Source: Candidatus Fermentibacteraceae bacterium (GTDB lineage: Bacteria; Fermentibacterota; Fermentibacteria; Fermentibacterales; JCC-6). From it: 64,000 nucleotides of DNA. Below, in pieces: positions 5,883-63,029 of the stretch. The translations under genes and the position numbers were made by a program. The stretch lies in assembly GCA_041686025.1 (NCBI GenBank), contig JAWLEP010000003.1, forward strand, positions 17,744 through 81,743, given 5' to 3'. The first letter of the stretch is position 1, and every line of letters starts with the position of its first letter. Below the pieces are notes generated by a model, which had not been told where the DNA came from, did not search any database, and was given only the letters and a program-made list of their open reading frames with translations.

Positions 5883-7178
5883 GTGGATGATTGGGGGCCG
5901 CTATTGAACGCGATAGCCGAAATAACAGCGAGGCAGATACTGGACTCCAGAGGAAATCCAACGCTTGAGGCCGACGTTGTGCTCGAGTCCGGCGTATGGG
6001 GAAGGGCCGCAGTTCCCAGCGGAGCCTCCACCGGCGAGCACGAGGCCGTAGAGCTGCGGGACGGGGGAGAGGCCTTTCTGGGCAAGGGCGTCACCCGGGC
6101 GGTGGACAACGTGAACAGCAGGATCGGCCCGGAGCTCATGGGCATTCCGGCCGACGAGCAGCGGACCATCGACGACATCATGCGGGAGCTTGACGGAACC
6201 GACAACAAAGGCAGCCTCGGGGCCAACGCAGTGCTGGCGGTATCCATGGCCGCTGCCAGGGCTGCGGCGGCTTACCTGGGCCTACCCCTCTACAGGTACG
6301 TGGGGGGGCTGACCCCCGCCACCCTTCCGGTGCCCATGATCAACGTCCTCAACGGCGGCCGTCACGCCTCGAACCCCCTGGACCTGCAGGAGTTCATGAT
6401 AGTGCCTGCGGGGTTTCCCGCCTTCTCCGATGCCCTGCAGGCCGCCGCGGAGATATTCGGCACCATGAAGGCCAGGGCCTCCGAGATGGGCATGCCCACC
6501 ACCGTAGGGGACGAGGGTGGACTGGCCCCCGACCTGCCGGACAACGAGTCGGCTCTGGATTTCATCACCGAAGCGATCTCCGCCGCCGGCTACCGGCCGG
6601 GGGAGCAGGTCTTCCTGGCCCTGGACCCCGCCGCCAGCGAGTTCTGCGACCAGGGCCGCTACGAGATGCACGGCGCCGGCACCCTGGACTCCGGGGGAAT
6701 GGTGGACTACTGGGAGAAGCTGGTGAGGTCCTATCCCATAGTCAGCATCGAGGACGGCCTGGACGAGGACGACTGGGATGGATGGAAGCTCCTGAACCGG
6801 CGGCTGGGTGAGCGCATACACCTGGTGGGCGACGACCTCTTCGTTACCAATACCGCGCGACTGGCCCGGGGCATCCGGGAGGGGTCGGCAAATGCCATTC
6901 TGATAAAGCTCAACCAGATAGGGACCCTCACCGAGACGGTGGAGGCCGTGGGGATGGCCCACCGCAACGGCATGCGCGCCGTGATCAGCCACAGAAGCGG
7001 CGAGACCTGCGACACCTTCATCGCCGATCTGGCGGTGGGGCTCTCCACGGGCCTGATCAAGACCGGCTCCACCAGCAGGAGCGACCGGACCTCCAAGTAC
7101 AACCGCCTGCTGAGAATAGAGGAAGAGCTGGGGACCGGAGCTGACTACGCCGGCCTCAGCGCGCTCCTGGAGGGGTGA
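5883..7178 (+). CDS. eno: Enolase (phosphopyruvate hydratase)
   Basis: [27 protein letters not shown], and catalytic/Mg-binding motifs across the full 431-aa length. A TTG at about 5907 ([11 protein letters not shown]) is a possible alternative start. Confidence 0.95.
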
Positions 7179-8807: not shown

Positions 8808-9710
8808 ATGGATCGTCAGAAGCCGCTGCGGGTCTCTTCGGTGGGTAGAAGGGGCCTGGTCCTCAACGACGGCGGAGGCAGTGAGCTCCCGGCCCGGGCC
8901 GCAGGCAGAGTCTTCAGCACGAAGTCTCCGGTTCCCGGCGACCTGGTGCGGGCCAGGCGCGAAGGCGGCACCCTGCTGGTGGAGAGCGTCCTGCCCCGCC
9001 GGAACACTCTCACCAGGGCCGACCGCAAAGGAGATGCCAGGGTGGTTGCCGCCAACGTGGACCTGGTCATGGCGGTGATGTCCGTCGCCGAGCCGCCCTT
9101 TGCCGCCGGACTGCTGGACCGGATACTGGCCGCTGCCGAGTACGACCGGCTCAAGGCGCTTGTGGTTCTGAACAAGACGGACCTGTATGGGGAAGAGGAT
9201 GCGGAAGGCCCCGGCGGGGCGCTGCTGGCCGACTACCGGGCAGCCGGCTACCGGTGCAGGCCGGTCAGCTGCCGGTCGGGGGAGGGAGTCGAAGAGATAA
9301 TGGACCTGATGTCCGGGCGGGTGGTGATGATGGCGGGCCCGTCGGGCTCGGGGAAGACATCCATCGCCCGCCATCTGCGACCGGACCTGGACCTGCAGGT
9401 GGGAGAGGTGAGCCCCAGGACCGCGCGGGGAAGGCACACCACAACCTCCTCGCGACTCATCCCCCTCGGTCCGGATACGTTCCTGATGGATACCCCCGGC
9501 GTTGCCGGCTACGCCATAGACCACATTCCGCCGGAGGAACTGGGGGGATGCTTCCCCGAGATCGCCGCACTGCAGGACGACTGCCGCTTCCGTGATTGCT
9601 ACCATGACAGCGAGCCGGGCTGCGCCGTAAGGGAAGCGGTGGAATCGGAACAGCTGTCAGGGGCCAGATACGAGAGCTACCTGGAACTGCTTCGCAGAGT
9701 CAGGGAATAA
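8808..9710 (+). CDS. rsgA: Ribosome small-subunit biogenesis GTPase RsgA (YjeQ/EngC)
   Basis: Circularly permuted GTPase motif order: VVLNKTDL (G4) precedes MAGPSGSGKTSI (G1). C-terminal zinc-finger CRFRDCYHDSEPGCAV. Confidence 0.9.
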   Translation: MDRQKPLRVSSVGRRGLVLNDGGGSELPARAAGRVFSTKSPVPGDLVRARREGGTLLVESVLPRRNTLTRADRKGDARVVAANVDLVMAVMSVAEPPFAAGLLDRILAAAEYDRLKALVVLNKTDLYGEEDAEGPGGALLADYRAAGYRCRPVSCRSGEGVEEIMDLMSGRVVMMAGPSGSGKTSIARHLRPDLDLQVGEVSPRTARGRHTTTSSRLIPLGPDTFLMDTPGVAGYAIDHIPPEELGGCFPEIAALQDDCRFRDCYHDSEPGCAVREAVESEQLSGARYESYLELLRRVRE

Positions 9711-9751: not shown

Positions 9752-11032
9752 TCAGCCCCTGCGGTCGTCCGAACGTTTCCAGAACTGCAGGTCCGACTTT
9801 ATCTCGCCGCCCAGCTCTGCCCATCTGGACCAGGTCTCGGGCCTCTCCTGCTGCAGCTGGCGTACCCGCTCGCGAATGAACAGGTAGGCAACCACCAGAA
9901 GCAGTGCGGCGGCGAATACCTCCAGCCAGATGTAGAGCTTCTTGGGCTTGCTCTTCCAGCCGGGGTGCCTGGGGGGGTCAAGCATGCGGACGTTGGACTC
10001 GGTGCGGTTCTCTTCCACCATTGCCTGCTGGTAGTTCAGCGTGAGCATGCTGTGCATCTGCTGGGACATCTCCAGGTCGCTCTTGAACTTGATGTAGTCG
10101 AACTGGATCTCGGGCACCTCCCGTATGGAGACACCGCTGTAGAACTCCTCGTACCCGGGAGGAATGCGCCCCTCCTCCAGCATGCGGATGACCTGCAGAA
10201 GGGCGTCCGCCCGCAGCCCCAGCTCTCGCGAGGCGGTGGTGGGTCCTCCCAGGGCGGTCTCCATGGTCTGCGCCTGCGCCTCGGCCCGGAGGTAGTCGCT
10301 CTTCAGCTGGGCCAGGTTCTCGACAAAGGCCTGCAGCTCGGTCTCCAGGTCCACCAGACCGTGCTGCATCTCGAAGACCCTGAGGCTCTCGGCCGCGGCC
10401 ATCCTGATGCTGTCGGTGCGGGCCAGCTGCATCCCCAGGAACCTCCTGTCCGCAGCCGCCCTGCTGGTGTAGACGTCATCCAGTGTGCTGTCCAGCACCG
10501 CTACAACCCTCTCGGATATCAGCACGGAGTACATGGGATCGCTGGTGGTCATCTCGACCTCCAGGAATCCAGCCGGGGTGATATTGGCGGAGTAGTTCTG
10601 GCGGAACATCTTGCGGGCCCAGTACATACGCAGAATATCGTCGTCGGGGTAGGCCTCGGTGAGCTCGTTGCTGTCAGCGTAGGCCGTGGTCCTGATGACG
10701 TTCTCCACCAGGCTTCTGCTCTCGAGAATCTCCAGGTAGACGTCGGACAGAGTGGTCATAAGCGGCAGCGAGAAGCCCATGCCCCCGCTGAAGTACCCGG
10801 CGAACTCCGAGATCCCCAGGCCACCTATGCTGAGGCTGGGGCTGCTCCTCTCCTCCGGTGGCATGATCACCGTGGTTACCGTGAACTGCTCCTGCAGGAG
10901 ATAGGTGATGATCACCGTGGGAACCATTACCGCAAGCAGGGTCAGTATCAGGAACCATCGGTTCTTCAGCAGCACGTAGAGGTACCACGATGGCTTCCGC
11001 TCGGGGCGGATGCCGTCTCTCTCTGCGTCGGT
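9752..11032 (-). CDS. Polysaccharide chain-length determinant protein (Wzz/GumC family, no kinase domain)
   Basis: N-terminal TM (YLYVLLKNRWFLILTLLAVMVPTVIITYLL), a long periplasmic coiled-coil region, and a C-terminal TM (YIWLEVFAAALLLVVAYLFI). Start chosen at ATG 11032, 2 nt after the Wza stop, rather than 11104. Confidence 0.7.
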   Translation of the reverse strand, partial: TDAERDGIRPERKPSWYLYVLLKNRWFLILTLLAVMVPTVIITYLLQEQFTVTTVIMPPEERSSPSLSIGGLGISEFAGYFSGGMGFSLPLMTTLSDVYLEILESRSLVENVIRTTAYADSNELTEAYPDDDILRMYWARKMFRQNYSANITPAGFLEVEMTTSDPMYSVLISERVVAVLDSTLDDVYTSRAAADRRFLGMQLARTDSIRMAAAESLRVFEMQHGLVDLETELQAFVENLAQLKSDYLRAEAQAQTMETALGGPTTASRELGLRADALLQVIRMLEEGRIPPGYEEFYSGVSIREVPEIQFDYIKFKSDLEMSQQMHSMLTLNYQQAMVEENRTESNVRMLDPPRHPGWKSKPKKLYIWLEVFAAALLLVVAYLFIRERVRQLQQERPETWSRWAELGGEIKSDLQFWKRSDDRRG

Positions 11033-11034
11033 CA

Positions 11035-12243
11035 TCAGAATATGCTCTTCCACGCTATGACGACGCTGGCCACACCGGTGAGCACCGTAAGGTAGTCCTG
11101 CCACCAGACCAGCCCCGCCCTGGGCACCCGTATCACGGAGCCGGAGGGCACGCTTTGCAGCTCGTCTATGGAATATACCTCGCCGTCAGGTGTGACTATC
11201 TCGGTATCGTCCAGGTCGGCTTCGTCATCTATGCCTCCGGCGCTGGCTATGTAGTATCCGGCGTCCATTCCCGGCACGTATCCCTGGGGGCCCGGCATGA
11301 ACACATGCCCCGACACCATGACCGTCACCGACGCTCCGGGGCATATCAGCATGTCCCCCGGCATCAGCACCGGGTCCATCGAGTCGTCGTCCATGGGGGC
11401 GGGCAGCCTCAGCTCCCGCCTGCTGCTGTCCCGCCTCATGACGTAACATCGGGAGGGATGGGCCCATGGAGAAAGGCCCCCCGCCCTCTTCACAAGCTCA
11501 CTGGCCGTCTCATCCTCCCGGTAGGACAGGAACCCCCGGGTGCTGCCCTCCCAGCTGGTGTCGGCCTGGGCCAGGGGGGCTCCCGTCTGATAGATGTAGC
11601 GCAGGGAGACAGCCCCCTCCACGCCCACCTTGGGACCGGCGTAGGGCACGTTGATCACGTCCCCGGCGCCCAGCATGGGGTTTGCGCTCCATTCGCCGGT
11701 TTCCAGGTAGGCGGCCACGTCCACGTCAAGCGAGTCGCCCCCCCGCAGCAGGTAGACGCTGTCCCATGCGCCTCCATGGGATATCCCGCCCGCCAGCTGC
11801 AGAAGGTCCGAGACCCTGTCCGCGGCGGTTGAGGGATACAGTCCGGGCTTCACCACGTTGCCCGTCACCGACACCCGGAAGGTCCGCATTCGGGCAAGCC
11901 CCACCATCGGGGTGCCGCTGCGGAACCTCGCTTCGAAAGATCGCTCCACGAGGTCCACGGCCTCCGCGAGGGTCAGCCCCTCCAGGTCCACGGCTCCCAC
12001 CAGGGGGATCACCACGTAGCCGTCCGGAGTGACGGGGAGCTCCAGCCCCCCCTGAGACATCGAGTCGGACAGCTGCGTGGGCAGGCCGCCCTCTGCGGAC
12101 AGCCACAGGACATCGCCCGGCCCCACCTCGTAGCGCTCGGGGTCCACCGGGAATGTGAGCTCAGAGTTGGGGTATTGGTCACCCGGAAACTGGCCCAGCA
12201 GTGCGCCGAGCAGAAGCGTGCCTATCAGAGCTGCATTGGCCAA
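11035..12243 (-). CDS. Polysaccharide export protein (Wza/GumB-like, SLBB domains)
   Basis: Signal peptide MANAALIGTLLLGALLG. Poly_export/SLBB-type sequence (YEVGPGDVLWLS ... GDVINVPY ... GDMLICPG ... GSVIRVP). Confidence 0.75.
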   Translation of the reverse strand: MANAALIGTLLLGALLGQFPGDQYPNSELTFPVDPERYEVGPGDVLWLSAEGGLPTQLSDSMSQGGLELPVTPDGYVVIPLVGAVDLEGLTLAEAVDLVERSFEARFRSGTPMVGLARMRTFRVSVTGNVVKPGLYPSTAADRVSDLLQLAGGISHGGAWDSVYLLRGGDSLDVDVAAYLETGEWSANPMLGAGDVINVPYAGPKVGVEGAVSLRYIYQTGAPLAQADTSWEGSTRGFLSYREDETASELVKRAGGLSPWAHPSRCYVMRRDSSRRELRLPAPMDDDSMDPVLMPGDMLICPGASVTVMVSGHVFMPGPQGYVPGMDAGYYIASAGGIDDEADLDDTEIVTPDGEVYSIDELQSVPSGSVIRVPRAGLVWWQDYLTVLTGVASVVIAWKSIF

Positions 12244-12329: not shown

Positions 12330-13271
12330 CTAAATCAGTGATGCAACCATAAGGGCCTTGATGGTGTGCTTGCGGTTCTCCGCCTCGTCCCAGACCACCG
12401 AGCTGGGGCCCTCGATCACGTCGAAGGTCACCTCGTTGCCCTTCACCGCCGGCAGGCAATGCATGAAGAGGACATCCGGGTTGCCGGTCTGATCCAGCAT
12501 ATCGGCGTCCACCCTGTAGGGCTCCAGCAGGGCGATCCGCTCCTTCATCTGCTCCTCCTCGCCCATGGAGGCCCAGACGTCGGTGTAGATCACGTTGGCG
12601 CCCTCCACCGCGGCCTCCCTGTCTGAGGTGATGCGGATCTCGGCGCCGGAGCGGTCCGCCAGTCCCCGGACCGTCTCCACCAGCTTGCCCTCCGGGTGGA
12701 GCTCATCCGGAGCCAGCACGGTGCAGTTCATGCCCATCAGCGCCGAACCGATCATCAGGCTGTTGGCCATGTTGTTGCGGCCGTCGCCGGCGTAGACGAA
12801 GTCCAGCCCGGCCACGTCGCCCAGGTTCTCCTCGATGGTCATCAGGTCCGCCAGCACCTGGGTGGGATGGTAGAGGTCTGTGAGGCCGTTGAAGACCGGC
12901 ACACCCGAGTACTCGGCCAGCTTCTCCACCGTTGCCTGCTGGAAGCCCCGGAACATGATGCAGTCGAACATCCGGCCCAGCACCCGGGCGGTGTCCTCTA
13001 TGCTCTCCTTGGCCCCCAGCTGTATGTCGGAGCTGGACAGGAACACCGGACAGCCGCCCTCCTCGCCGAAGGCGGTCTCGAAGGCGCAGCGGGTCCGGGT
13101 GGACCGCTTCTCGAAAAGCATCGCCAGGGTCCGGCCCCGGAAGCGCTGCTGGAACTGCCCCGCCAGCCTCTCCGCCTTGAGCATGTGCGACAGGTCAAGC
13201 AGGTAGCGTACGTCCTCCGCCTTTAGGTCCAGAAGGGTGAGCAGGCTTCTTCCCCTGAAGTTCTTCGCCAT
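12330..13271 (-). CDS. argF: Ornithine carbamoyltransferase
   Basis: STRTRCAFE carbamoyl-phosphate-binding motif, HCLPA motif (FMHCLPAVKGNEVT), 313 aa. Confidence 0.9.
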   Translation of the reverse strand: MAKNFRGRSLLTLLDLKAEDVRYLLDLSHMLKAERLAGQFQQRFRGRTLAMLFEKRSTRTRCAFETAFGEEGGCPVFLSSSDIQLGAKESIEDTARVLGRMFDCIMFRGFQQATVEKLAEYSGVPVFNGLTDLYHPTQVLADLMTIEENLGDVAGLDFVYAGDGRNNMANSLMIGSALMGMNCTVLAPDELHPEGKLVETVRGLADRSGAEIRITSDREAAVEGANVIYTDVWASMGEEEQMKERIALLEPYRVDADMLDQTGNPDVLFMHCLPAVKGNEVTFDVIEGPSSVVWDEAENRKHTIKALMVASLI

Positions 13272-13405: not shown

Positions 13406-13987
13406 CTAGAAGATGTAGTAGGCTCCGGCCAGTATGTTCTCCGGAGCATAGGTGCGGTAGCCGCTGTAGGTCTCGTCGATGTCCTGTTCGCCGCCCTCCG
13501 TGGTGGTGGTAGCGCTGTAGTAGTGGATGCCGAACTCCGTGAACAGGGCAAAGCGCTCGGCCCCCGGAATCGCGAAGTCGATCCTCATCAGCGGTGAGAT
13601 GGAGTAGGCGCTGGTCTCCGGACCGTCTACACCGTCCGTCTCGGAAGAGGTCTTGGCGTAGATGATCTGCCCGCCGAAGCTGAACTCCGTGTTGGCGGGG
13701 TCTGCAACCAGGTAGTAGCCGGAGCCGCCGATTGCCCAGGTGCTCATGTCGTACTCATCCGTGCCGGGATCTTCCTCGTACGACAGCTTGTCGTAAGCCA
13801 GAAGGCCCTCCATGCGGAATGCAGGACTGACCATGGCGCCGAAGCGGAGCATCGGCATGCCCTCTGTATAGAGCGTGGCATCGGAGACGTAGTAGGGCAC
13901 AGGGCTTTGCTTGAAGCCCAGGGAGTAGCCTCCGAAGGCGGCACCTGCCAGGGCGAGAAGCGCGACGGCTGCAAAGATCCTCATCAT
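13406..13987 (-). CDS. Outer-membrane beta-barrel protein (OmpA/OmpW-like), predicted
   Basis: Signal peptide MMRIFAAVALLALAGAAFG. Alternating amphipathic beta-strand pattern and a C-terminal aromatic (…GAYYIF). Start moved to 13987. Confidence 0.5.
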   Translation of the reverse strand: MMRIFAAVALLALAGAAFGGYSLGFKQSPVPYYVSDATLYTEGMPMLRFGAMVSPAFRMEGLLAYDKLSYEEDPGTDEYDMSTWAIGGSGYYLVADPANTEFSFGGQIIYAKTSSETDGVDGPETSAYSISPLMRIDFAIPGAERFALFTEFGIHYYSATTTTEGGEQDIDETYSGYRTYAPENILAGAYYIF

Positions 13988-14136: not shown

Positions 14137-15231
14137 CTATTCGGTAGCGGTGAAGAGCCGCAGCCCGTTGATCTCCTGGTACTCGTAGCTGAAGGTGACT
14201 CCGCTTACCGAGGGGGCCTCGGGGTTGGCCTCGACCCCCTCCACCAGGAGCTTCACGTAGTTGCCCTGGGGGGTCTGGCCGAAGATCAGGCCGTCGGTGA
14301 CGGCGGCGATGGAGTCGGAGTAGGCCGCCGGGTCTTCGGGGGCCACTGCGGAAGAGCCCGTGCCGTCGGCCATGGGGCAGGCCGTTCCCTGGCCCACCGG
14401 CGGAGCGCTTCCCGAGAACAGGGCCGCCGGCTCCAGCGCGGACGTGTGGCAGTAGACGTGGTAGTTGCCGTCGGCGTAGTCGTAGCTCAGGCTGGGCACG
14501 CAGGGGTTGAGGTACATGCCCACCGGGTAGCCGTCGGGGACGTCCTCCTCCCACAGGGTATAGGAACCCTCGCTGAGGGCGGGCATGGTGGAGGCTTCCT
14601 GCGAGCGGGCCGACTGGCCCTCGGCGTCGTTGGTCCTCACGGCGTAGAGGCCGGCGGACTGCGCCGTGTGCGTGTACTCCGTTCCCTCCACGGCCTCGGC
14701 CACCGTGTTCCAGCTGCCGGAGCTGTCGGCGTCGAACTCCACATCGTAGGACTCCGCGTCGGGGACCGCGGTCCAGCGGACCGTCACGGACGTCCCGGAG
14801 GAGGAGCCGGCGTCTACCCACACACTGTCTGGAGCGGCGGTGGATGTGTGGCTCACCGTGAGGACGCCGTCGCTGTAGTCGGACTCCTCGTAGCCGCCCT
14901 CGCGTATCACGCCGCGCACCCAGTAGTCGCCGGCGGGAAAGGTGGCGCAGTCCCAGTTGAACCCCGTCTGCTCCACACCCAGCGACTCGGCGATGAGCAC
15001 CAGGCCGCTGGTGGGATCGAGGTCGGTGTCCACGTAGATGTTGACCCACGCGTCGGCCCAGCCCTCGGTGTCCAGCGTCCACTCCACGATGTAGCTCTCG
15101 TCGGCGGTGGCCCCTCCGGCCGGGGGGGCGGTGATGGTGATGTCCAGGTCGCTGCCGGTGCCGCCGCAGGATGCAAGGAGAAGGGAGACAGCTGCAACCG
15201 CCGGGGTTGCTATGGCCGGCACGGCCCTCAC
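14137..15231 (-). CDS. Lipoprotein with fibronectin type III-like domain; paralogue of the 16117..16983 gene
   Basis: Lipobox LLLASCGG. Fn3-like block VTVRWTAVPDAESYDVEFDADSSGSWNTVAEAVEGTEYTHTAQSAGLYAVRTND aligns with IVLTWTAEEDAEEYEVYFKTTSGGNWSAVETTSNTTFTHTNATSAGYYSVRAKD in the paralogue. Shared C-terminal …YEYQEINGLRLFTATE. A GTG start at 15231 forms a GTGA overlap with the upstream stop; the alternative ATG is at 15261. Confidence 0.5.
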   Translation of the reverse strand: MRAVPAIATPAVAAVSLLLASCGGTGSDLDITITAPPAGGATADESYIVEWTLDTEGWADAWVNIYVDTDLDPTSGLVLIAESLGVEQTGFNWDCATFPAGDYWVRGVIREGGYEESDYSDGVLTVSHTSTAAPDSVWVDAGSSSGTSVTVRWTAVPDAESYDVEFDADSSGSWNTVAEAVEGTEYTHTAQSAGLYAVRTNDAEGQSARSQEASTMPALSEGSYTLWEEDVPDGYPVGMYLNPCVPSLSYDYADGNYHVYCHTSALEPAALFSGSAPPVGQGTACPMADGTGSSAVAPEDPAAYSDSIAAVTDGLIFGQTPQGNYVKLLVEGVEANPEAPSVSGVTFSYEYQEINGLRLFTATE

Positions 15232-16028
15232 AGGCCCTGCTGCCTCAGCAGCTCGTTCCACATCATGGAGAAGGCCAGCTCGGCCTTGCCCCTACAGCAG
15301 GGGTCCTCCGCCACGGCCACCAGCCCTACCCTGGACCCGTCGGGCATCATGCCTATGGCGGCGATGGACTCGCCGTCCTCCTCGTACGCGGGCACCCCGT
15401 AGGCCACCACGCCCTCCAGGTTGCGCAGCACCTCGGGGCCGCGGGGGAAGCCGGAGTGAAGAGCCCTTCTTATACCGGGGTAGTCCAGACCCTCACCCAG
15501 GATCTCCACCATGCTCAGCATGTCGTCGATGCTGGAGGTGCTGGCCTCCACCTCCGGGGCCCCCGGGAAGTGCATGCGGAAGTCCGTGTAGTCCGTGTCG
15601 TCGAGGCTTCTCTCCGTCAGCCAGCTCTCGAACCGTTCGGCCCCTATGAAGTAGTGGAGGATGATTCCCGGGTCCGCCCGGCCCTTCATGTTCTCGGCGA
15701 GCAGGTAGGAGATCGTCTGGCCGCCTCCGGGAACGTCATCCAGAGCGATCTCGCCGCGACGGAGCAGGTCCACCGCGCAGGCTGCCAGCACCAGCTGCGG
15801 GTTGCCGAACTTCACGGGCCCGGTCTCTCCTGCGGTAAGCCTCTCGCCCGTTGCCAGGTCCACCATCCCCACCGCCATCTCGGCGCCCCCGATGTTCGCC
15901 GCATCGTTGACGGTGGACTCCATGCCGGAGAGGATGTCCGAGGAAACCGCCGTATCGGGCCCCTCGTCGAATATGGACCCCTGGCCAATGAGAGCGGCCG
16001 CTGCGATTGCCAGCAAAGCGATACTCAT
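15228..16028 (-). CDS. Secreted class-A beta-lactamase-fold protein lacking the catalytic SxxK (predicted non-catalytic)
   Basis: Signal peptide MSIALLAIAAAALIG. The segment ETGPVKFGNPQLVLAACAVDLLRRGEIAL aligns with TEM [27 protein letters not shown] but has NPQL where STFK belongs. The SDN position reads AEN. C-terminal MPDGSRVGLVAV aligns with GPDGKPSRIVVIY. Confidence 0.5.
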   Translation of the reverse strand: MSIALLAIAAAALIGQGSIFDEGPDTAVSSDILSGMESTVNDAANIGGAEMAVGMVDLATGERLTAGETGPVKFGNPQLVLAACAVDLLRRGEIALDDVPGGGQTISYLLAENMKGRADPGIILHYFIGAERFESWLTERSLDDTDYTDFRMHFPGAPEVEASTSSIDDMLSMVEILGEGLDYPGIRRALHSGFPRGPEVLRNLEGVVAYGVPAYEEDGESIAAIGMMPDGSRVGLVAVAEDPCCRGKAELAFSMMWNELLRQQGL

Positions 16029-16048: not shown

Positions 16049-16082
16049 GGGCCCCGCCGGCCGCTGGCGGCCGGCGGGGCCC
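16049..16082. repeat. Perfect 16-bp GC-only inverted repeat (hairpin) in the intergenic region between the lipoprotein paralogue and the beta-lactamase-fold gene
   Basis: GGGCCCCGCCGGCCGC-tg-GCGGCCGGCGGGGCCC, exact complementarity. Lies 34 nt downstream of the 16117 stop and 20 nt upstream of the 16028 start on the minus strand. No U-tract follows. Confidence 0.5.
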
Positions 16083-16116: not shown

Positions 16117-16983
16117 CTAGTTGCTCTTGGTGGTGAAGAGCTGTATGCCCTCGCGGTCCTGGATCTCGTAGTGGAGGTCCACCTCGGTGCCGTTGTCGCT
16201 GCCCGTGTAGGGCGAGACATCGTCCACGAAGACCTTGGCGAAGTAGTCGCCTTCCAGCTGCAGTATGAAGATGTCGCCGCTGGCCAGGTTGGAGGTGTAG
16301 GAGCCGATGTTGCTCTCGGGGTAGCCGTAGGTGCTTCCCGGGCTCCAGAAGACCGTGGTGTTTCCACCCTGTGCCGGGCTCATGTCGCCGGAGCGGAAGA
16401 GGACCTCGGTGTCGCCCTTGCCCTCTTCGTAGGCGTAGATGTCCTGGTTGAAGTCGGCGCTGTAGGCGGATCCCGTCTCGGCGCCCTCGAATCCGAAGAA
16501 GATGCCGCTGGGCAGATCCTCGGCGGCGTAGTTGTCGTAGATGGTGTAGCCGGTGGAGATCTCGATGGGCATGGTGTTCACCGCGGAGGCGTACTCCTCG
16601 GAGTAGTTGTCGCCGTCCTTGGCGCGTACCGAGTAGTAGCCGGCGCTGGTGGCGTTGGTGTGGGTGAAGGTGGTGTTGGAAGTTGTCTCAACCGCGCTCC
16701 AGTTGCCGCCGGAGGTGGTCTTGAAGTAGACCTCGTACTCCTCGGCATCCTCCTCGGCGGTCCAGGTGAGGACGATGTCACGGCCGTCGGAGGCGTCCCA
16801 GTCGATGGACAGGCCCGTTATCTGGGGCAGCGTGCCTCCGCCGCCGCCGGGGTCGTCGCCCTCGCAGCCGACCATTAGCACGACAGCGAGTGCCGTAAGC
16901 AGAATTGCGTACTTCTTCATGAATGCTCCTCTCTTCGATGTTGGTGTCACTTCGGACACATAGCAAGATAGCTCCACCCCCAT
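16117..16983 (-). CDS. Lipoprotein with fibronectin type III-like domain; paralogue of the 14137..15231 gene
   Basis: Lipobox MKKYAILLTALAVVLMVGC. Fn3-like block and C-terminus (…HYEIQDREGIQLFTTKSN) shared with the paralogue. Confidence 0.55.
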   Translation of the reverse strand: MGVELSCYVSEVTPTSKRGAFMKKYAILLTALAVVLMVGCEGDDPGGGGGTLPQITGLSIDWDASDGRDIVLTWTAEEDAEEYEVYFKTTSGGNWSAVETTSNTTFTHTNATSAGYYSVRAKDGDNYSEEYASAVNTMPIEISTGYTIYDNYAAEDLPSGIFFGFEGAETGSAYSADFNQDIYAYEEGKGDTEVLFRSGDMSPAQGGNTTVFWSPGSTYGYPESNIGSYTSNLASGDIFILQLEGDYFAKVFVDDVSPYTGSDNGTEVDLHYEIQDREGIQLFTTKSN

Positions 16984-16995
16984 ACCCTGTCAAAC

Positions 16996-19386
16996 CTACC
17001 CGCCGGCGCCATCGGGGTTCCCCCCAAGTTCCTCCAGGGCGTGCTCGGCCGCCGAGCGGACATCCAGCTGCGGGTCCCCGGCCAGCTCCAGCAGCAGGGG
17101 AACCGCGGTGCTGTCCCCGATGGCTCCCAGGGCCGCCGCCACCCGGGTCCTCACCCGGGAGGAGGAATCCCGGGCCAGGGGCACGATGGCGGCAATGGAG
17201 GCCGGCTCACCTATCCGGCCCAGGGCCTCCACAACGGTGGCCCGCAGGCCCACCTGGAGGCTGTCGTCCAGGGCGTCCTCCAGGGCCGGCCGGCCCGAGG
17301 CCTCACCCATGCGGCCCAGCAGCCAGGCGCAGTTGCCCCGCACCCTGGCGGCCTCCGAGGCCAGCAGGCTCTCCGCCAGCGCCGGCAGGGCCAGCCGGGC
17401 ATTCTCCTTCAGCGCCGACTCCATGGCCCGCAGCTCCAGGCCGTCCCAGGCGTTCAGGCGCTCCCCGAGGATGTACGCCACCGCTTCCTCCCCCCTGCGG
17501 CCCAGCTCCCGGCGGTGGGCCAGAACCCTCTCGCGATTCTCGGCCACCGCCCACTCAGCGGCCACCTCGAACAGGGAGTCCAGCTCCAGGGAGCCGGGGT
17601 CCCCGATGGGGTCATCGGCCAGGCTGTCCGGGGGGCTGCTGCGGGGTAAGTCGGCCCCCACGCCGTAGCTGGGAAGCCTCCACAGCTCGCCGCCTCCGGG
17701 CCCCAGGAAGCGGTCGTCGTCGGCCAGGTCCAGGAAGACGGCGGCCCCTCCGAAGCCGCGGCGCCATGGTGCCTCCCCCTGCCCGCCCCCCGCTGCGGCG
17801 TAGACGTCGTCACCGCCCAGGTCTGCGAAGATGCAGGCGGAGTTGGTGAGGGCCAGGGCCTGGCCGCCGTCTGCGCAGTACCAGTCGTCGCCGCCTGCGT
17901 CCAGCAGGAAACCCGTGGAGAGGTCGTGGGCGCTGCCCTGCGCCGGTCCCCGGCGGGAGACGTAGACGTCGTCGCCGCCGCCCTCCCATAGGCAGCCGGC
18001 GGCCAGGTGTATCCCCGAACCCTGGCTGTACTGGGCGGCGGTGTAGCTGTCCTGGCCGTCCTGGTCGTAGAGCATTCCCAGGCCGTAGAAGTAGGCGGCG
18101 CCCTGTCCGAAGACCTCCGCCCGGTAGGTGTCGTTGCCGGAGCCCAGGTCGGCCAGGAGCCCCACGCCCCCGGCCACGAAGGGCCGCAGGCCCATGGCGA
18201 AGCCCTGGGACATGGCCCGGTGGTCCTCACGCAGCAGCGGCTCGTGGGGGTAGCGGAATCCCGCCAGGTAGGAGTCGTGGCCGGCCCGGTCACACAGTGT
18301 GCCCCGTCCGGCGGGGCCCCCGAAGCCCTGCCCGAAGGCCGCCACCCTGTAGGAGTCGTCACCCCCGGCGTCCAGCAGGTCGCCCCTGCCCATCATGGCC
18401 GCCCCCTGGGACATGTAGTCGGCGCGGTAGGTATCGTCGCCTTCGAGGTCGGCCAGCAGGCCCTGGCCCGCCAGGCCGCACCCCTGCGAGAGGGCTCCGG
18501 CGGTGTAGGTGTCGTCGCCGGCAAGGTCCACCAGCACTCCCAGGCCCCCGAAGCCCGAGCCCTGGGCACCGGGCAGCTCGGTCAGGTAGCGGTCGTCGCC
18601 GGCCAGGTCCACCACCACGGCCACGAACCTCCCCGCAGGTGCGGCCGCCGCGGCGCAGTGGCCGCGGTAGGTGTCGTCGCCCCCGATGTCGATGATCAGG
18701 TCGAAGCCTCCGGTGTAGGTGTTGGGTCCGGGTCCGCCGATCACCCAGCTCACGGGGCCGGCGGTGTCGAAGTCGGCCACCGCGCCCTCCACCCCGGGAG
18801 CGCGGAGCTCCGCCTCCGGCCAGCGCACCTCCCCCAGTTCAAGTGCCAGGCACGTGAACGTGTCGGGGTCCAGGGAAGGGGGGACCGGCCACCGGGACAG
18901 GAGGCCGGCCAGCGAATCGGGCTCCACCTCCGGGCCGACGGGCTCGGCCAGGCCCCAGGAGCGGTGCAGGGCCCCGGGGGAGCCCCACTCCCCAGGGGCG
19001 TCCCCGTCGGCGAAGACCACCGGCAGCAGGCAGGCCAGGGTGTCCCCGGCCCCGGCTGCGGAGTCGAAGGCGGCGGAGTAGGCCTCCGCCCGCTCCTCCA
19101 GCAGCAGCAGCAGGTCGGCCATGGGGTCGTCTCCCCCGTAGCTGGCGCTGCCGTCCGGAAGGGCCGACACCTCGCCTGAGAGGATGGCGGGAAGGGAGTG
19201 AATGTCCGTGAGGGCCTTCAGGACCGTGGAGTCCGGAAGGGCTACCCCCCGGGACCAGTGGCGGTCGAAGTTCATCTGCCCCCGGGTGATGTCCAGGGAG
19301 TCCAGGCAGACCGTCAGGGCGGAGTCCACCTCGGCCGGCAGCTGAGGGGCCGGGGCCAGGGCGGCGATCAGAAGGGCTGTGAGCAT
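16996..19386 (-). CDS. Large secreted protein: 12 tandem GDDxY beta-roll-like repeats followed by C-terminal HEAT (PBS-lyase-type) repeats
   Basis: Start set at the internal ATG at 19386 (MLTALLIAALAPAPQLPAEV, signal peptide), preceded by GGGAGGACAG. The 285 codons upstream in the track ORF run antisense to thiM and the riboswitch. Repeats of the form IIDIGGDDTYRGH, VVDLAGDDRYLTE, LVDLAGDDTYTAG, LADLEGDDTYRAD, LLDAGGDDSYRVA and so on, each followed by an xSQGxG segment. C-terminal HEAT repeats (…VRTRVAAALGAIGDSTAVPLLLELAGDPQLDVRSAAEHALEELG). Confidence 0.6.
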   Translation of the reverse strand: MLTALLIAALAPAPQLPAEVDSALTVCLDSLDITRGQMNFDRHWSRGVALPDSTVLKALTDIHSLPAILSGEVSALPDGSASYGGDDPMADLLLLLEERAEAYSAAFDSAAGAGDTLACLLPVVFADGDAPGEWGSPGALHRSWGLAEPVGPEVEPDSLAGLLSRWPVPPSLDPDTFTCLALELGEVRWPEAELRAPGVEGAVADFDTAGPVSWVIGGPGPNTYTGGFDLIIDIGGDDTYRGHCAAAAAPAGRFVAVVVDLAGDDRYLTELPGAQGSGFGGLGVLVDLAGDDTYTAGALSQGCGLAGQGLLADLEGDDTYRADYMSQGAAMMGRGDLLDAGGDDSYRVAAFGQGFGGPAGRGTLCDRAGHDSYLAGFRYPHEPLLREDHRAMSQGFAMGLRPFVAGGVGLLADLGSGNDTYRAEVFGQGAAYFYGLGMLYDQDGQDSYTAAQYSQGSGIHLAAGCLWEGGGDDVYVSRRGPAQGSAHDLSTGFLLDAGGDDWYCADGGQALALTNSACIFADLGGDDVYAAAGGGQGEAPWRRGFGGAAVFLDLADDDRFLGPGGGELWRLPSYGVGADLPRSSPPDSLADDPIGDPGSLELDSLFEVAAEWAVAENRERVLAHRRELGRRGEEAVAYILGERLNAWDGLELRAMESALKENARLALPALAESLLASEAARVRGNCAWLLGRMGEASGRPALEDALDDSLQVGLRATVVEALGRIGEPASIAAIVPLARDSSSRVRTRVAAALGAIGDSTAVPLLLELAGDPQLDVRSAAEHALEELGGNPDGAGG

Positions 19387-21601: not shown

Positions 21602-22546
21602 CTATTCGAAGGGGCTCCGGCGGCGGAAGTCCGGCAGGCAGGACTCCGGGGAGTCCATGCCCTGGACCCAGCCCACCCGGAGCCCCTCCTCCTCCAGAAC
21701 CTCCCGCGCCCTTGCATACTCCGAGGGCCGGATCCTCCTGGACAGAAGCGGAAACTCCCCCGCCCTGTGCAGGGGGTTGTACTGCGACATCAGGCTGACC
21801 CCCACCCCGGGCGAGAGCTCCCGGGCTATGAACCGAAGCCACTGCTCCGTCCCCGACAGGCCTCCCGGCAGGACCAGCAGCCTCACCAGCAGGCCGGACT
21901 CCGCTACGCCGTCGGGCCCGACCCGCAGGGGCCCCGCCTGCCTGAACATCTCCCGCAGGGCTTTGCGGGCGGCCCCCGGGTAGCCGGGGGCGCCGGAGTA
22001 GCGGACGGCGTGCTCCTCCTCCCAGTACCGCGCGTCGGGCAGGTATATCTCGAAGATCCCCTCCAGCAGCTCCAGCACCTCCACCCTGTCGTAGCCGGAG
22101 GAGTTGTAGATCAGGGGGAGGCCGAATCCCTCCTCCGCCGCCAGGGCCAGGGAGTCCAGTATCCAGGGGAGGTAGTGGGTGGGGGTTACGAAGCCCGCAG
22201 TGGGGCATCCGGCGTCCCGGAAGCGCAGCAGCGTCCGGGCCAGCTCCCGGGCCTCGGTGGGGAACCGCCTGGGGGTCTGGCTGATGTCGTGGTTCTGGCA
22301 GTAGACGCAGGAGAGGCTGCAGTGGGCCAGGAAGACGTTGCCCACGCCCCGGCGGCCGCCCAGCACCGGCTCCTCCCCGTGGTGGACGCAGGTGGAGGCC
22401 ACCTCCAGCTCCCCCCCGGCGCCGCAGCGGCCCCGCTGGCCCCGGTCCCTGCGGGCCCCGCACCGGTGGGGGCAGAGCCGGCAGGGGGAGGCCAGCTCCC
22501 TCAGCCGGCCCGCCCGCTCCCGCAGCAGAGCCGGGTCCGCCATCAT
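21602..22546 (-). CDS. Radical SAM protein, PflX/YjjW-like (pyruvate formate-lyase activating enzyme homologue)
   Basis: N-terminal CRLCPHRCGARRDRGQRGRCG cysteine cluster followed by radical SAM CSLSCVYCQN (CxxxCxxC). The start overlaps the stop of the ABC gene at 22543. Confidence 0.8.
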   Translation of the reverse strand: MMADPALLRERAGRLRELASPCRLCPHRCGARRDRGQRGRCGAGGELEVASTCVHHGEEPVLGGRRGVGNVFLAHCSLSCVYCQNHDISQTPRRFPTEARELARTLLRFRDAGCPTAGFVTPTHYLPWILDSLALAAEEGFGLPLIYNSSGYDRVEVLELLEGIFEIYLPDARYWEEEHAVRYSGAPGYPGAARKALREMFRQAGPLRVGPDGVAESGLLVRLLVLPGGLSGTEQWLRFIARELSPGVGVSLMSQYNPLHRAGEFPLLSRRIRPSEYARAREVLEEEGLRVGWVQGMDSPESCLPDFRRRSPFE

Positions 22547-24276
22547 GCCCGCTCCGTGCCGGCGTCGGACATCTCCGTGGAGATCACCCAGCGGTAGAGC
22601 CTGCTCTCCCGCCGCAGCCGGTCATGGGTGCCGGCGGCCGCCAGCCGGCCCCGGTGCAGAAGCACCACCCGGTCGGCGTGCTTCACGGTGGCCTCCCGGT
22701 GGGTGACCACGAAGGTGATGGCGCCCGAGGCCGCCGGGCCGAGACGCTTCCAGAGAGCCTCCTCCCGCTCGGCGTCCAGGGCGGCGGTGCAGTCGTCCAG
22801 AAGCAGCAGCGACGGCCCCCCGGCCAGGGCCCGGGCGATAGCCACGCGCTGCCGCTGGCCGCCGCTCACCCCGGTGCCGCCCTGGCCCAGCAGACGGCGG
22901 GCGCCCATGTGCAGCTCCCCCGCGGGGAGGCCGGCGGCCTCCAGGGCCGCCGCCACCCGCTCCTGGCCGATGGGCCTTCCCAGGCGGACGTTCTCCGCCA
23001 CCGTCTCGCTGAACAGCACCGACTCCTGGGGCACGTACCCCACCCTGGCGGAGAGGGCGTCCTCGGGGATGCTCTGAAGCGGGACGCCGTTGAGCAGCAC
23101 CTCCCCCTCCCCGGCCGGCAGAAGGCCGGCCAGCATCTTCAGCAGGGTGGTCTTTCCGCTCCCCACCTCCCCCACCACTGCCACCACCGCCGGGGCCTCC
23201 ACCCGCAGGTCGATGCCCTCCAGCCCGGGGCCCTCGGGGTAGCGGAATCCGGCTCCCCGGAGCTCCACGGTGCGCAGGGGGCCGGGATCCTCCCCCGAGA
23301 GCCTTCGCACCCTGCCGGGGAACTCCAGTATCTCGTTCTCCCTGTCTATGGAGGCGAAGGCCTGCCGGGAGGTGACGAAGAGGTTGGGGATGTCCATCAT
23401 CGGCGCCAGGAGCAGGTCCAGGTAGACGTAGAAGGCGTAGAAGTCGCCCAGGCCTATACGCTGCCGGATCACCAGTATTCCCCCCACCAGGACCACCAGG
23501 ACCTTCCCGAAGTGGCCGATGAAGTTGTAGAGGCTGTGCACCAGCATCATCAGCCGGGCGATGTCCATCTCTATGTCAACCCGGCGGTCCAGCAGGCGGC
23601 GCAGCCGGGACTTCTGGCCATCCTCGGCCCCGTAGGCCTTCACGATGGAGATGCCGGCGAAGGTGCTGTCCAGCAGGTCGTTGGTGTGGCTGGTGGCCCG
23701 GCGGCTCTCCTCCACCTTCTTGCCCAGCCGGTGCTCCACGCGGTAGAAGATGTAGATCATCAGGGGCAGGGGGGCCACCGCCAGCAGCGTCAGCTCCCAG
23801 CTTATCAGCACCATCACCACCAGGCAGAACAGCAGCCGGGCGGAGGACTCCAGGGCCCGGAAAACGGCCGAGCAGCTGAACCAGCCGATCCGGGGGTACT
23901 CCACGATGTCGTCGGTGAGCCTGGTGGTGAGATCGCCGGGACGGAACCTCCCCCAGAAGCGGTAGTCCTTCTCCTTGAGGCTGTCGAAGACGTCGTCGCG
24001 GACGTCCAGGCCGATCTTGCTGTTCAGCCAGGCCCTGGCCCCGGGGTAGAGGCCGGCCACGAAGCGTCCCAGGGCCAGGGCCCCCAGTATCAGCATCACC
24101 TGTCGCAGCCTGTCGCCTCCCTCCATGACCTGCTCCAGGTTGTCCAGGACGTAGCGGAAGACCAGGGGAAAGCCCAGGGCCACCCCGCTGGAGACCACGG
24201 TGAGCACCAGGAGGACGGAGATGTGGGCCCGGTGTCCGCGCCAGTAGGAGGCTATCCAGCGCATGTGCCTAAGCAT
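22543..24276 (-). CDS. ABC transporter permease/ATP-binding protein (type I exporter half-transporter)
   Basis: Six-TM domain followed by an NBD with Walker A GEVGSGKTTL, ABC signature VSGGQRQRVAIARAL and Walker B LLLDDCTAALD. Confidence 0.9.
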   Translation of the reverse strand: MLRHMRWIASYWRGHRAHISVLLVLTVVSSGVALGFPLVFRYVLDNLEQVMEGGDRLRQVMLILGALALGRFVAGLYPGARAWLNSKIGLDVRDDVFDSLKEKDYRFWGRFRPGDLTTRLTDDIVEYPRIGWFSCSAVFRALESSARLLFCLVVMVLISWELTLLAVAPLPLMIYIFYRVEHRLGKKVEESRRATSHTNDLLDSTFAGISIVKAYGAEDGQKSRLRRLLDRRVDIEMDIARLMMLVHSLYNFIGHFGKVLVVLVGGILVIRQRIGLGDFYAFYVYLDLLLAPMMDIPNLFVTSRQAFASIDRENEILEFPGRVRRLSGEDPGPLRTVELRGAGFRYPEGPGLEGIDLRVEAPAVVAVVGEVGSGKTTLLKMLAGLLPAGEGEVLLNGVPLQSIPEDALSARVGYVPQESVLFSETVAENVRLGRPIGQERVAAALEAAGLPAGELHMGARRLLGQGGTGVSGGQRQRVAIARALAGGPSLLLLDDCTAALDAEREEALWKRLGPAASGAITFVVTHREATVKHADRVVLLHRGRLAAAGTHDRLRRESRLYRWVISTEMSDAGTERA

Positions 24277-26080
24277 CGATCCTGTCCTCCTCCCCGTCGC
24301 CCCGCCCCAGCTGAAGCCGGTACAGGCCCGAGTAGACGCCTCCCCGGGCCAGGAGCTCGGCGTGGGGGCCCTCCTCGATCACCCGGCCGCCCTGGATCAC
24401 CAGTATCCGGCTGGCGTGCAGGACGGTGCCCAGACGGTGGGCCACCACCAGAGCGGTCCTGTCCTCCACCATCAGGTCGGTGGCCCTCTGAATTCGCTTC
24501 TCCGTGCCGGGGTCCACGCTGGAGGTTGCCTCGTCCAGGACCAGTATGTCCGGCTGCCGCAGTACGGCCCTGGCGAAGCTCACCAGCTGCCTCTCGCCCA
24601 TGGAGAGGTTGGTGCCCCCCTCGGCTATCTCGGTGTCCAGGCCGCCGGGCAGCCTCTCCACCAGATCCTCTGCGTCGATGGCCCGCATGGCCGCCATCTG
24701 GTCCTCCCGGGGCACCTCCGGGTCGAAGACCGTGAGGTTCTCCGACAGGCTGCCGGAGAACAGGTTCACGTCCTGCAGCACCATGCCCAGCCGGCTGCGC
24801 CAGACCTCCATCCTGAGGTCGGCGATGTCCATGCCGTCCACCGTTATCCGGCCCCTCTGCGGGGTGTAGAAACGCATCAGCAGCCCCACCACGGTGGACT
24901 TGCCGCCGCCGCTGGCCCCCACCAGGGCCACCATCTCCCCCCGGCGGAGGGTCATGCTCATGCCCCGCAGGGCCCAGTCGTCGTCCTCGGCATAGCGAAA
25001 CCAGACGTCCTCGAACCGGATCTCGCTCCAGTCCGGGGTAAAGGCCTCCCGGCCCAGTACGCCGTCCGGGGTGAGGGTCTCGGTGTCCAGTATGCCGAAA
25101 AGCCGGTCGGCGGAGGCCAGGCCCCGCTGGACCTGGTTCAGCGTGGAGCTGAACATCAGGATGGGCTGGAACAGCCGCCGGGTGTACTCCACGAACAGCA
25201 CCACCGTGCCCGCCGTGAGGACCCCGGAGGCCAGCCCCCCCCGCCCGGCGAAGAGTATCACCGCCACGGCCACTATCTCGCAGCTGCCCAGGAAGCTCCA
25301 GAAGGTGTACTCCCAGCCCATGGCCCGCACCTCCCGGCGCACGTACTCCTCCCCGGCGCGGTGGAGCTTCTCCGCCGCCGTCCCGGTGGCCCCGAAGACC
25401 TGGAGGACGGGTATGGAGCGGACGTACTCCGCCACCACCGAGGAGACCCGGGCGAAGGCACTCCGCAGCCTGCCGTACAGGGTCCGCATGTAGCGCAGCA
25501 CCGGGACGGTGAGCAGGGCCACGGGGACGATGAGCACCAGCACGGCTCCGGTGATGCGCAGGTCCGTGGCCGCCATCACCGCCAGGGTGCCCACCACCAG
25601 GGCCAGGCTGCGCAGCAGGGCCATGGACACGTCGCTGAACAGCATGCGGATCTTCTCGCCGTCGCTCTCCACCCTGGCCATGAGCCGGCCCGTAGGGTGC
25701 CGGTCGAAGAAGGACCGGGAGAGGGTGAGCATGTGCGAGAAGACCCCGCCCTTCACGTCCCTCACCACGGCAAGGCCGATCCTGGTGGCCATCACCACCT
25801 GCAGGTAGGAGAGGGCCATCACCAGGCCGAAGAGCCCGGCGAATAGGCCGGAGAGAAGCACTATCTCCCCGATGCTGCCGCTGGGTATGGAGACGTCTAT
25901 GACCCGCCGGAGCACCAGGGGGGCGGCCAGCTCCCCCGCCACCGAGAGCAGCAGGAGCGCGCCGGCTCCCAGGAAGGTCCCCAGCCTGGGCCGCACGTAG
26001 GGCCAGAGCCGGGCCATAAGGCGCAACGACGACGTACGCCTGGTCTCCCGCCCTTCCTCCTCGAGCTCACCCCACATCAC
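24269..26080 (-). CDS. ABC transporter permease/ATP-binding protein (partner half-transporter)
   Basis: TM domain followed by an NBD with GASGGGKSTV, LSMGERQLVSFARAV, ILVLDEATSSVD. Overlaps the downstream ABC gene by 8 nt, implying a heterodimeric exporter. Confidence 0.9.
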   Translation of the reverse strand: MMWGELEEEGRETRRTSSLRLMARLWPYVRPRLGTFLGAGALLLLSVAGELAAPLVLRRVIDVSIPSGSIGEIVLLSGLFAGLFGLVMALSYLQVVMATRIGLAVVRDVKGGVFSHMLTLSRSFFDRHPTGRLMARVESDGEKIRMLFSDVSMALLRSLALVVGTLAVMAATDLRITGAVLVLIVPVALLTVPVLRYMRTLYGRLRSAFARVSSVVAEYVRSIPVLQVFGATGTAAEKLHRAGEEYVRREVRAMGWEYTFWSFLGSCEIVAVAVILFAGRGGLASGVLTAGTVVLFVEYTRRLFQPILMFSSTLNQVQRGLASADRLFGILDTETLTPDGVLGREAFTPDWSEIRFEDVWFRYAEDDDWALRGMSMTLRRGEMVALVGASGGGKSTVVGLLMRFYTPQRGRITVDGMDIADLRMEVWRSRLGMVLQDVNLFSGSLSENLTVFDPEVPREDQMAAMRAIDAEDLVERLPGGLDTEIAEGGTNLSMGERQLVSFARAVLRQPDILVLDEATSSVDPGTEKRIQRATDLMVEDRTALVVAHRLGTVLHASRILVIQGGRVIEEGPHAELLARGGVYSGLYRLQLGRGDGEEDRIDA

Positions 26081-60799: not shown

Positions 60800-60875
60800 T
60801 GGCGCTCCCACGGGGACTCGAACCCCGGTTTCCGGCGTGAGAGGCCAGCGTCCTAGACCACTAGACGATGGGAGC
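60800..60875 (-). tRNA. tRNA-Glu (anticodon CUC)
   Basis: Reverse complement GCTCCCATCGTCTAGTGGTCTAGGACGCTGGCCTCTCACGCCGGAAACCGGGGTTCGAGTCCCCGTGGGAGCGCCA folds as a cloverleaf: acceptor GCTCCCA/TGGGAGC, anticodon loop CTCTCAC, T-arm CGGGG-TTCGAGT-CCCCG, encoded CCA. Close in sequence to E. coli tRNA-Glu. Confidence 0.85.

Positions 60876-62936: not shown

Positions 62937-63029
<93 letters not shown>

Follow-up and report, generated by a model that had tools for sequence, protein, structure and literature searches.

In routine annotation, proteins with a beta-lactamase fold are called resistance genes or "serine hydrolases". The sensor domains of BlaR1 and MecR1 are of the class D type, are fused to a membrane zinc-protease transducer and sense through acylation of an active-site serine. 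BlaB, an actinobacterial protein, acts together with the LysR-type BlaA beside a beta-lactamase gene. MipB of Pseudomonas aeruginosa is an envelope protein with a serine-beta-lactamase fold in which the SXXK motif is missing and motifs 2 and 3 are degenerate (PMC10936184). It is an AmpC-like (class C) lipoprotein of about 600 amino acids (aa) with two extra C-terminal barrel domains, is controlled by ParRS, and is encoded beside the outer-membrane beta-barrel MipA, with which it co-purifies (PMC10936184). Here we describe a gene on the minus strand of a 64,000-nucleotide stretch of DNA from a Candidatus Fermentibacteraceae bacterium (the window, in whose coordinates all positions are given unless a related locus is named), for which the closest described systems by sequence and structure are the class A-like "serine hydrolases" of the Pfam family PF13354 (Chitinophaga pinensis 6v4w and the metagenomic precursor LRA-5, 8eo5). 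An earlier note, made by eye from the sequence, had taken its product for a secreted beta-lactamase-fold protein that has lost its catalytic residues. The product very probably has a class A fold that is dead by the classical catalytic mechanism, and the explanation that we consider reasonably likely as a whole is that it is exported and kept as a non-catalytic binding or scaffold subunit of the envelope.

15228..16028, minus strand: coding sequence of the predicted class A beta-lactamase-fold pseudoenzyme, 266 aa

Used alone as a query, the protein gave no match at E <= 10 in Pfam or NCBIfam, only two unrelated and non-significant matches among the PDB sequences (E ~1.6), and one non-significant match in PHROGs (E = 0.68). 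A word-indexed homologue search returned three proteins only; an alignment of three sequences found no match to TEM-1 in hhalign, and AlphaFold run with a three-sequence alignment gave an unusable model, with a predicted local distance difference test (pLDDT) score of 36. When 1.84 billion representative proteins were searched exhaustively with a profile, 17 relatives were obtained, of which 11 have E < 1e-10 (query-to-relative matches from E = 7e-35 to 1e-10), and further ones were added by a second profile search. PF13354 (Beta-lactamase2) was matched at E <= 1 by 13 of the 19 sequences in the first alignment, and P0007, P0009 and P0004 exceed the 22-bit gathering threshold of that model with 29.7, 26.8 and 24.1 bits. 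The query itself stays below this cut-off while these relatives pass it, which makes it a divergent relative and not a member as the model defines it. The family profile matches the class A chain 6v4w with E = 1.2e-7 when built from 19 sequences and E = 1.9e-8 when built from 24, and the GNCA series of reconstructed ancestral class A beta-lactamases in the PDB with E ~1e-4; against TEM-1 the hhalign alignment runs end to end over 209 columns (E = 1.9e-4).

The AlphaFold2 model from the 19-sequence alignment, calculated with no templates, has a mean pLDDT of 87 and a predicted template modelling (TM) score of 0.84, with disorder (pLDDT below 50) confined to residues 6-29. The two-domain penicillin-binding fold, alpha/beta plus all-alpha, is present, and all 50 matches listed by Foldseek against the PDB are class A-fold chains (BlaB 2wuq, 4ewf, LRA-5, TEM, SHV and ancestral enzymes). 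The beta-lactamase fold claimed in the earlier note is thus borne out by the relatives' PF13354 matches, the profile match to 6v4w, the TEM-1 alignment, the AlphaFold2 model and Foldseek, and its assignment as class A-like specifically is solid. The similarity to class A beta-lactamases is far beyond chance at the level of the family, and is not detected when the query is used by itself.

The family is a small one: among 5.8 billion proteins it makes up about 30 clusters at 90% identity, and every member with a named source is a "hypothetical protein" from Candidatus Fermentibacteraceae metagenome-assembled genomes (MAGs). Its members have about 260 aa, x-P-x-[LIV] in place of SxxK, conserved G61, W136, Y210-G211 and G235, and a gene position between that of an Fn3 lipoprotein and that of an ornithine carbamoyltransferase (OTCase), and the protein of the window has all of these features. 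Only G61, W136 and G235 are invariant, so that no Ser, Cys or Thr is; Y210, D97, D169 and R187 are kept in at least 90% of the members. In the related locus L006 a second, truncated paralogue of 165 aa (1817..2314) lies two genes downstream of the full-length copy and matches only the C-terminal beta-sheet and the last helix (35% identity over 55 aa). Two candidates were discarded. L007, found in a Terriglobia MAG by a scan of genome contigs, is spurious, as there is no open reading frame (ORF) at the position of the match. P0016, a protein of 315 aa, joins HAMP_2 (PF18947, 1.4e-9) to a family member of which only the C-terminal two-thirds are present. If real, it would be a fusion for signalling, but it spans a 1029-nt Joint Genome Institute contig, lacks the N-terminal third of the fold and is probably a chimera of the assembly, and it was therefore not counted in favour of a sensor.

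The residues that decide on catalysis were located by aligning 24 relatives (two more, the partial P0015 and P0019, are in alignment A2 only) and by comparing the family with TEM-1 and with a class A profile of four enzymes, TEM-1, SHV-1, CTX-M-15 and KPC-2.

15792..15803, minus strand: N76-P77-Q78-L79 at the N-terminus of helix alpha2, replacing Ser70-x-x-Lys73 (profile alignments)
15690..15698, minus strand: A111-E112-N113 inside model helix 106-114, not the equivalent of Ser130-Asp131-Asn132 (SDN)
15675..15683, minus strand: G116-R117-A118, the loop equivalent to SDN (hhalign and model secondary structure)
15387..15395, minus strand: V212-P213-A214 on strand beta3, equivalent to Lys234-Ser235-Gly236 (hhalign; model strand 208-216)
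15336..15347, minus strand: M228-P229-D230-G231, the turn between beta4 and beta5 equivalent to GPDG (profile alignments)

As the earlier note had proposed, NPQL stands at the site of Ser70-x-x-Lys73, with Asn76 opposite Ser70 in four independent profile alignments (6v4w, the GNCA chains, TEM-1 by hhalign and the four-enzyme class A profile by hhalign). The counterpart of Lys73 is Leu79, Gln78 or a gap, depending on the alignment, and never a lysine; the query has three lysines only (K73, K115 and K248). That note had also allowed for a shifted register that would bring a Ser-x-x-Lys onto the catalytic site, but the query contains no S-x-x-K anywhere, so that no shift can restore the motif. 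The consensus of the site in the family is x-P-x-[LIV], with P77 kept in at least 90% of the members. Its first position is Ser in three members, yet the fourth is Lys in none, and S-x-x-K is absent from the site in all 24 aligned relatives.

The second motif is lost as well, although not where it had been sought. AEN (residues 111-113) had been read as the counterpart of SDN, from which it lies about five residues away: it aligns to Ser124-Ala125-Ala126 of TEM (precursor 122-124). Because it sits inside the preceding helix, 106-114, and is unconserved in the family, its likeness to SDN is due to chance. The SDN motif corresponds to Gly116-Arg117-Ala118 in the TEM-1 alignment, or to the residues one position later in the four-enzyme alignment, so that the counterpart of Ser130 is either Gly116 or Arg117; the loop joins model helices 106-114 and 118-128, and G116 is kept in at least 90% of the members. 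On strand beta3, V212-P213-A214 directly follows the near-invariant pair Y210-G211, and none of the relatives has a lysine at the position of Lys234. The GPDG-like C-terminal strand, by contrast, is conserved as claimed, since MPDG (228-231) stands opposite GPDG in TEM-1 and LPDG in 6v4w. With the Ser70/Lys73 dyad replaced and both Ser130 and Lys234-Thr/Ser-Gly gone too, the conclusion that the protein does not function as a serine beta-lactamase stands. The loss is more complete than first described, and the Ser-x-x-Lys dyad has gone family-wide. The motifs of low-molecular-weight penicillin-binding proteins and DD-peptidases, SxxK, SxN and KTG, are not found in the protein either.

A protein that has lost its active site might also be a decaying pseudogene or a chance ORF, with the likeness to beta-lactamases a functionless relic. 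The window has 68% GC and is full of spurious long ORFs that overlap on both strands, and no curated family was matched by the query alone, both of which would fit such a relic. However, the GC contents of the three codon positions (0.66, 0.46 and 0.87) are like those of neighbouring real genes, while the ORFs that overlap the gene on the opposite strand show the inverted pattern, and the minus-strand frame at 15228..16028 is therefore the true reading frame. A Shine-Dalgarno-like GGGGAG precedes the ATG by 5 nt. Furthermore, the ratio of nonsynonymous to synonymous substitution (dN/dS, Nei-Gojobori) is 0.15 and 0.24 between the gene and its two closest orthologues (85% and 62% identical, in L001 and L002), and 0.15, 0.24 and 0.22 across three orthologue pairs. 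These low values indicate purifying selection rather than decay. Together with a full-length, intact ORF at 21-85% identity across the family, a conserved synteny and a confident fold prediction, this refutes the relic in practice, and we give it a negligible probability.

A second alternative is that the protein is still an enzyme, with an apparatus other than the classical one. The candidates are Tyr210, Asp97, Asp169 and Arg187, which are among the conserved residues named above, or a pair of vicinal cysteines and a lysine near the C-terminus.

15285..15299, minus strand: C244-C245-R246-G247-K248, vicinal Cys-Cys plus Lys at the N-terminus of the last helix (family alignment)

The cysteines and the lysine at +4 co-vary perfectly, as the lysine is present in 17/17 relatives with CC and in 0/7 without it; the clades that lack CC have DD or NN in its place. 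The last model helix begins at residue 248, which puts CCxxK at the N-terminus of a helix, as for S-x-x-K, so that it is formally a C-x-x-K analogue, and by alignment it falls into the "270-loop" between beta5 and alpha11. This loop borders the substrate cleft in class A enzymes. We know of no class A relative that uses a CCxxK-like site, which counts against an enzyme of this kind, as does the lack of an invariant Ser, Cys or Thr. Moreover, CCxxK was lost as a unit at least three separate times, among others in P0003, a protein that shares 62% identity with the query and is well conserved apart from this, and the motif is therefore inessential to whatever the family shares. For these reasons we consider an enzyme with a non-classical apparatus unlikely. 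Quite unlikely as well is a reading in which the class A fold, having lost its old activity, acquired a new site on the rim of the former substrate cleft, where Cys244-Cys245 and Lys248 would act as a redox or metal switch or as a relocated C-x-x-K nucleophile/base pair; if true, the protein would be a thiol-based envelope sensor or enzyme of the anaerobic Fermentibacteraceae, working with a HEAT-repeat protein, Fn3 lipoproteins and an outer-membrane barrel, which are encoded next to it.

The protein begins with a hydrophobic stretch, and the genes on either side of it encode predicted envelope proteins.

15981..16028, minus strand: probable Sec signal peptide or N-terminal hydrophobic segment, about residues 1-16 (hydropathy)
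16996..19386, minus strand: HEAT-repeat protein of about 796 aa (Pfam HEAT_2, 1.4e-19), its start inferred from an alignment of orthologues
16117..16920, minus strand: lipoA, the upstream neighbour, an Fn3-like lipoprotein of 267 aa with lipobox LMVGC
16049..16082, minus strand: 16-bp G+C hairpin without a T-run between lipoA and the pseudoenzyme gene, read from the sequence
14137..15231, minus strand: lipoB, the downstream neighbour, a lipoprotein of 364 aa with lipobox LLASC, a paralogue of lipoA (Fn3-like match, 2.1e-5)
13406..13987, minus strand: small outer-membrane beta-barrel-like protein of 193 aa (Pfam OMP_b-brl, E = 1.8e-4, below cut-off)

The N-terminal segment contains no Cys and no lipobox, and residues 17-35 are predicted to be disordered and carry a PDT motif that is conserved in the family. 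The relatives have clearer Sec-like signal peptides than the query, for example MKALLFPLVAICSLALAQ. The description of the protein as secreted, made in the earlier note, can be kept as probable in view of this stretch and of the relatives' signal peptides. Every protein encoded in the cluster starts with a signal-peptide or lipobox sequence.

The order of the genes is HEAT-repeat protein, lipoA, pseudoenzyme, usually followed by lipoB and the barrel, and then ornithine/aspartate carbamoyltransferase. It was compared in eight related loci (L001, L003/L004, L005, L006, L008, L009 and L010), in which the orthologues of the pseudoenzyme are 21-85% identical to it, and is conserved in every locus long enough to be judged. 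The full order is seen in the window, L001 and L009, and L010 agrees with it as far as it reaches; lipoB and the barrel are absent from L003/L004 and L005, and the cluster is rearranged in L006 and L008. Orthologues of lipoA adjoin the pseudoenzyme gene in L001, L003, L005, L008 and L009, with a partial one in L006, and orthologues of the barrel-like protein are present in L001, L006, L008 and L009. The HEAT-repeat protein has orthologues that are 47-48% identical in the same position of L003 and L005. It starts with a hydrophobic segment, carries GDDxY-type repeats and has HEAT repeats of the PBS-lyase type in its C-terminal part. The GTG start of lipoB overlaps the TGA stop of the pseudoenzyme gene (GTGA), which suggests that the two are translationally coupled. 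Upstream, hairpins followed by TTTT are found at the same place as the window's hairpin in L009 (~1270..1300), L003 (~6960..6990) and L005 (~6960..6990), where these terminators sit immediately before the ribosome-binding site of the pseudoenzyme gene. The hairpins of the window and of L001 have no T-run, and that of the window was missed by a consensus terminator scan; Rfam gave no RNA family near the gene. This recurrence suggests a conserved internal attenuator that may set the ratio of lipoA to pseudoenzyme expression, the latter gene probably being expressed by attenuated read-through.

Some features of these neighbours were seen in passing. LipoA and lipoB have in common the Fn3-like domain and, at the C-terminus, a domain of about 150 aa without a match to any known family, and lipoB has an extra N-terminal domain of about 120 aa, which occurs as a separate small lipoprotein in some relatives (L006 1234..1632, L008 845..1225). 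The repeats of the HEAT-repeat protein number about a dozen, read 'L.D..G.D.Y' and possibly form a beta-helix; this region has no match in Pfam, NCBIfam or the PDB. The cluster itself is part of a conserved core region (9752..12243 (-), 12330..13271 (-), 8808..9710 (+), 5883..7178 (+) and 1329..2435 (-)) with polysaccharide export genes of the Wzz/GNVR and Wza (Poly_export/SLBB) types and with genes for OTCase, RsgA (a GTPase), enolase and an M23 peptidase, and these neighbours recur in L003, L005 and L006. Elsewhere in the window there are two ABC exporter genes (22543..26080 (-)), a gene for a 1298-aa protein with AAA_16 ATPase, TPR and MalT-like TPR domains in the layout of a STAND-type regulator (28883..32779 (-)), and two tRNA genes (60803..60875 (-) and 62940..63029 (-), Rfam RF00005, ~61-62 bits each).

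From fold, residues and context we would picture the protein as a single domain, about 250 residues long, that adopts the class A beta-lactamase/"serine hydrolase" fold of the PF13354 type, is probably exported through Sec and probably descends from a serine hydrolase related to class A, such as occur in bacteria of the Fibrobacteres-Chlorobi-Bacteroidetes (FCB) group. Since no acyl-enzyme could form, it would hydrolyze neither beta-lactams nor D-Ala-D-Ala peptides. It may instead have been kept as a non-catalytic module, whose likeliest task would be binding or scaffolding within a periplasmic or outer-membrane assembly with its co-inherited neighbours, and on balance we lean slightly towards such a role in the envelope.

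Several observations weigh against this picture. The residue mapping relies on profile alignments and model secondary structure, and in the omega loop the register is unstable: the counterpart of Glu166 is Pro155 in the TEM-1 alignment and Met152 in the four-enzyme alignment, and several relatives have W-E-G in this region, which could correspond to W165-E166-P167. In the alignment to TEM-1 the loop lacks about five residues, a gap that the four-enzyme alignment does not contain, and no acidic residue aligns with Glu166 in a confident manner. The protein is probably exported, but this prediction comes from hydropathy and from the relatives. The hairpin between lipoA and the pseudoenzyme gene makes co-transcription with the upstream genes uncertain, and the synteny with OTCase, RsgA and enolase belongs to a conserved core region, so that adjacency is weaker evidence of a shared function. 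Finally, a crude test of conservation gave a mean column entropy of 1.78 around the mapped elements of the active site and of 1.84 in the rest of the fold (p = 0.42). As the cleft is no more conserved than the rest of the fold, a protein-protein role is at least as likely as ligand binding, and a conserved small-molecule site in the vestigial cleft is not favoured.

The family is one in which the fold is under selection and the serine mechanism is gone, and it should not be taken for a resistance determinant. It forms a new, lineage-restricted and probably non-catalytic branch of a superfamily in which pseudoenzymes are already known, and is in this respect no major surprise. With it, a class A case joins the few pseudo-beta-lactamases known from the envelope (MipB and BlaB), and it marks a conserved five-gene envelope module in an uncultured phylum. 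Its use lies in annotation and in the study of pseudoenzyme evolution; nothing is overturned.

Compared with the PF13354 enzymes, the protein is of equal length, has an N-terminal export signal and is homologous at the level of the family (E = 1.9e-8), and it keeps the beta1-beta2 'DLxTGE' hairpin, the framework of helix alpha2 and the 'PDG' turn. It differs from them in that Ser70/Lys73, Ser130 and Lys234-Ser-Gly are replaced and the omega loop is shorter in the TEM-1 alignment, as well as in the family motifs xPxL, YG(W) and CCxxK and in a fixed, lineage-specific genomic context.

The likeness to BlaB of Streptomyces cacaoi raises the possibility of a sensor or regulator of beta-lactams or peptidoglycan fragments, as are BlaB and the sensor domains of BlaR1 and MecR1. 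BlaB (2wuq), described in the PDB as a beta-lactamase regulatory protein with a class A fold, is the top Foldseek match (E = 2.2e-10, TM 0.66), and both proteins have a class A fold without beta-lactamase function. However, their sequences are only 13-15% identical, and instead of a LysR activator and a beta-lactamase gene the neighbours here are the HEAT-repeat protein, the Fn3 lipoproteins, the barrel and OTCase; in none of the loci does a beta-lactamase gene, a LysR regulator or a two-component system lie next to the pseudoenzyme gene. Literature searches on S. cacaoi BlaB and on "lacks the catalytic serine" returned nothing. The analogy to BlaR-like sensors drawn in the earlier note does not hold, for reasons of fold class and domain architecture and for lack of the serine: unlike BlaR1 and MecR1, the protein is not of the class D type, is a single domain of 266 aa without a transmembrane, zinc-protease or DNA-binding module, and has no serine that could be acylated for sensing. 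A sensor of either kind is thus highly improbable.

For the non-catalytic envelope subunit that we favour, MipB would be the best functional precedent by analogy. The likeness is one of general theme only, in that SXXK is missing and an outer-membrane barrel is encoded in the cluster, and homology is no closer than that of the superfamily. Unlike MipB, the protein described here is class A-like, has 266 aa and comes without a lipobox, extra domains or a nearby two-component system.

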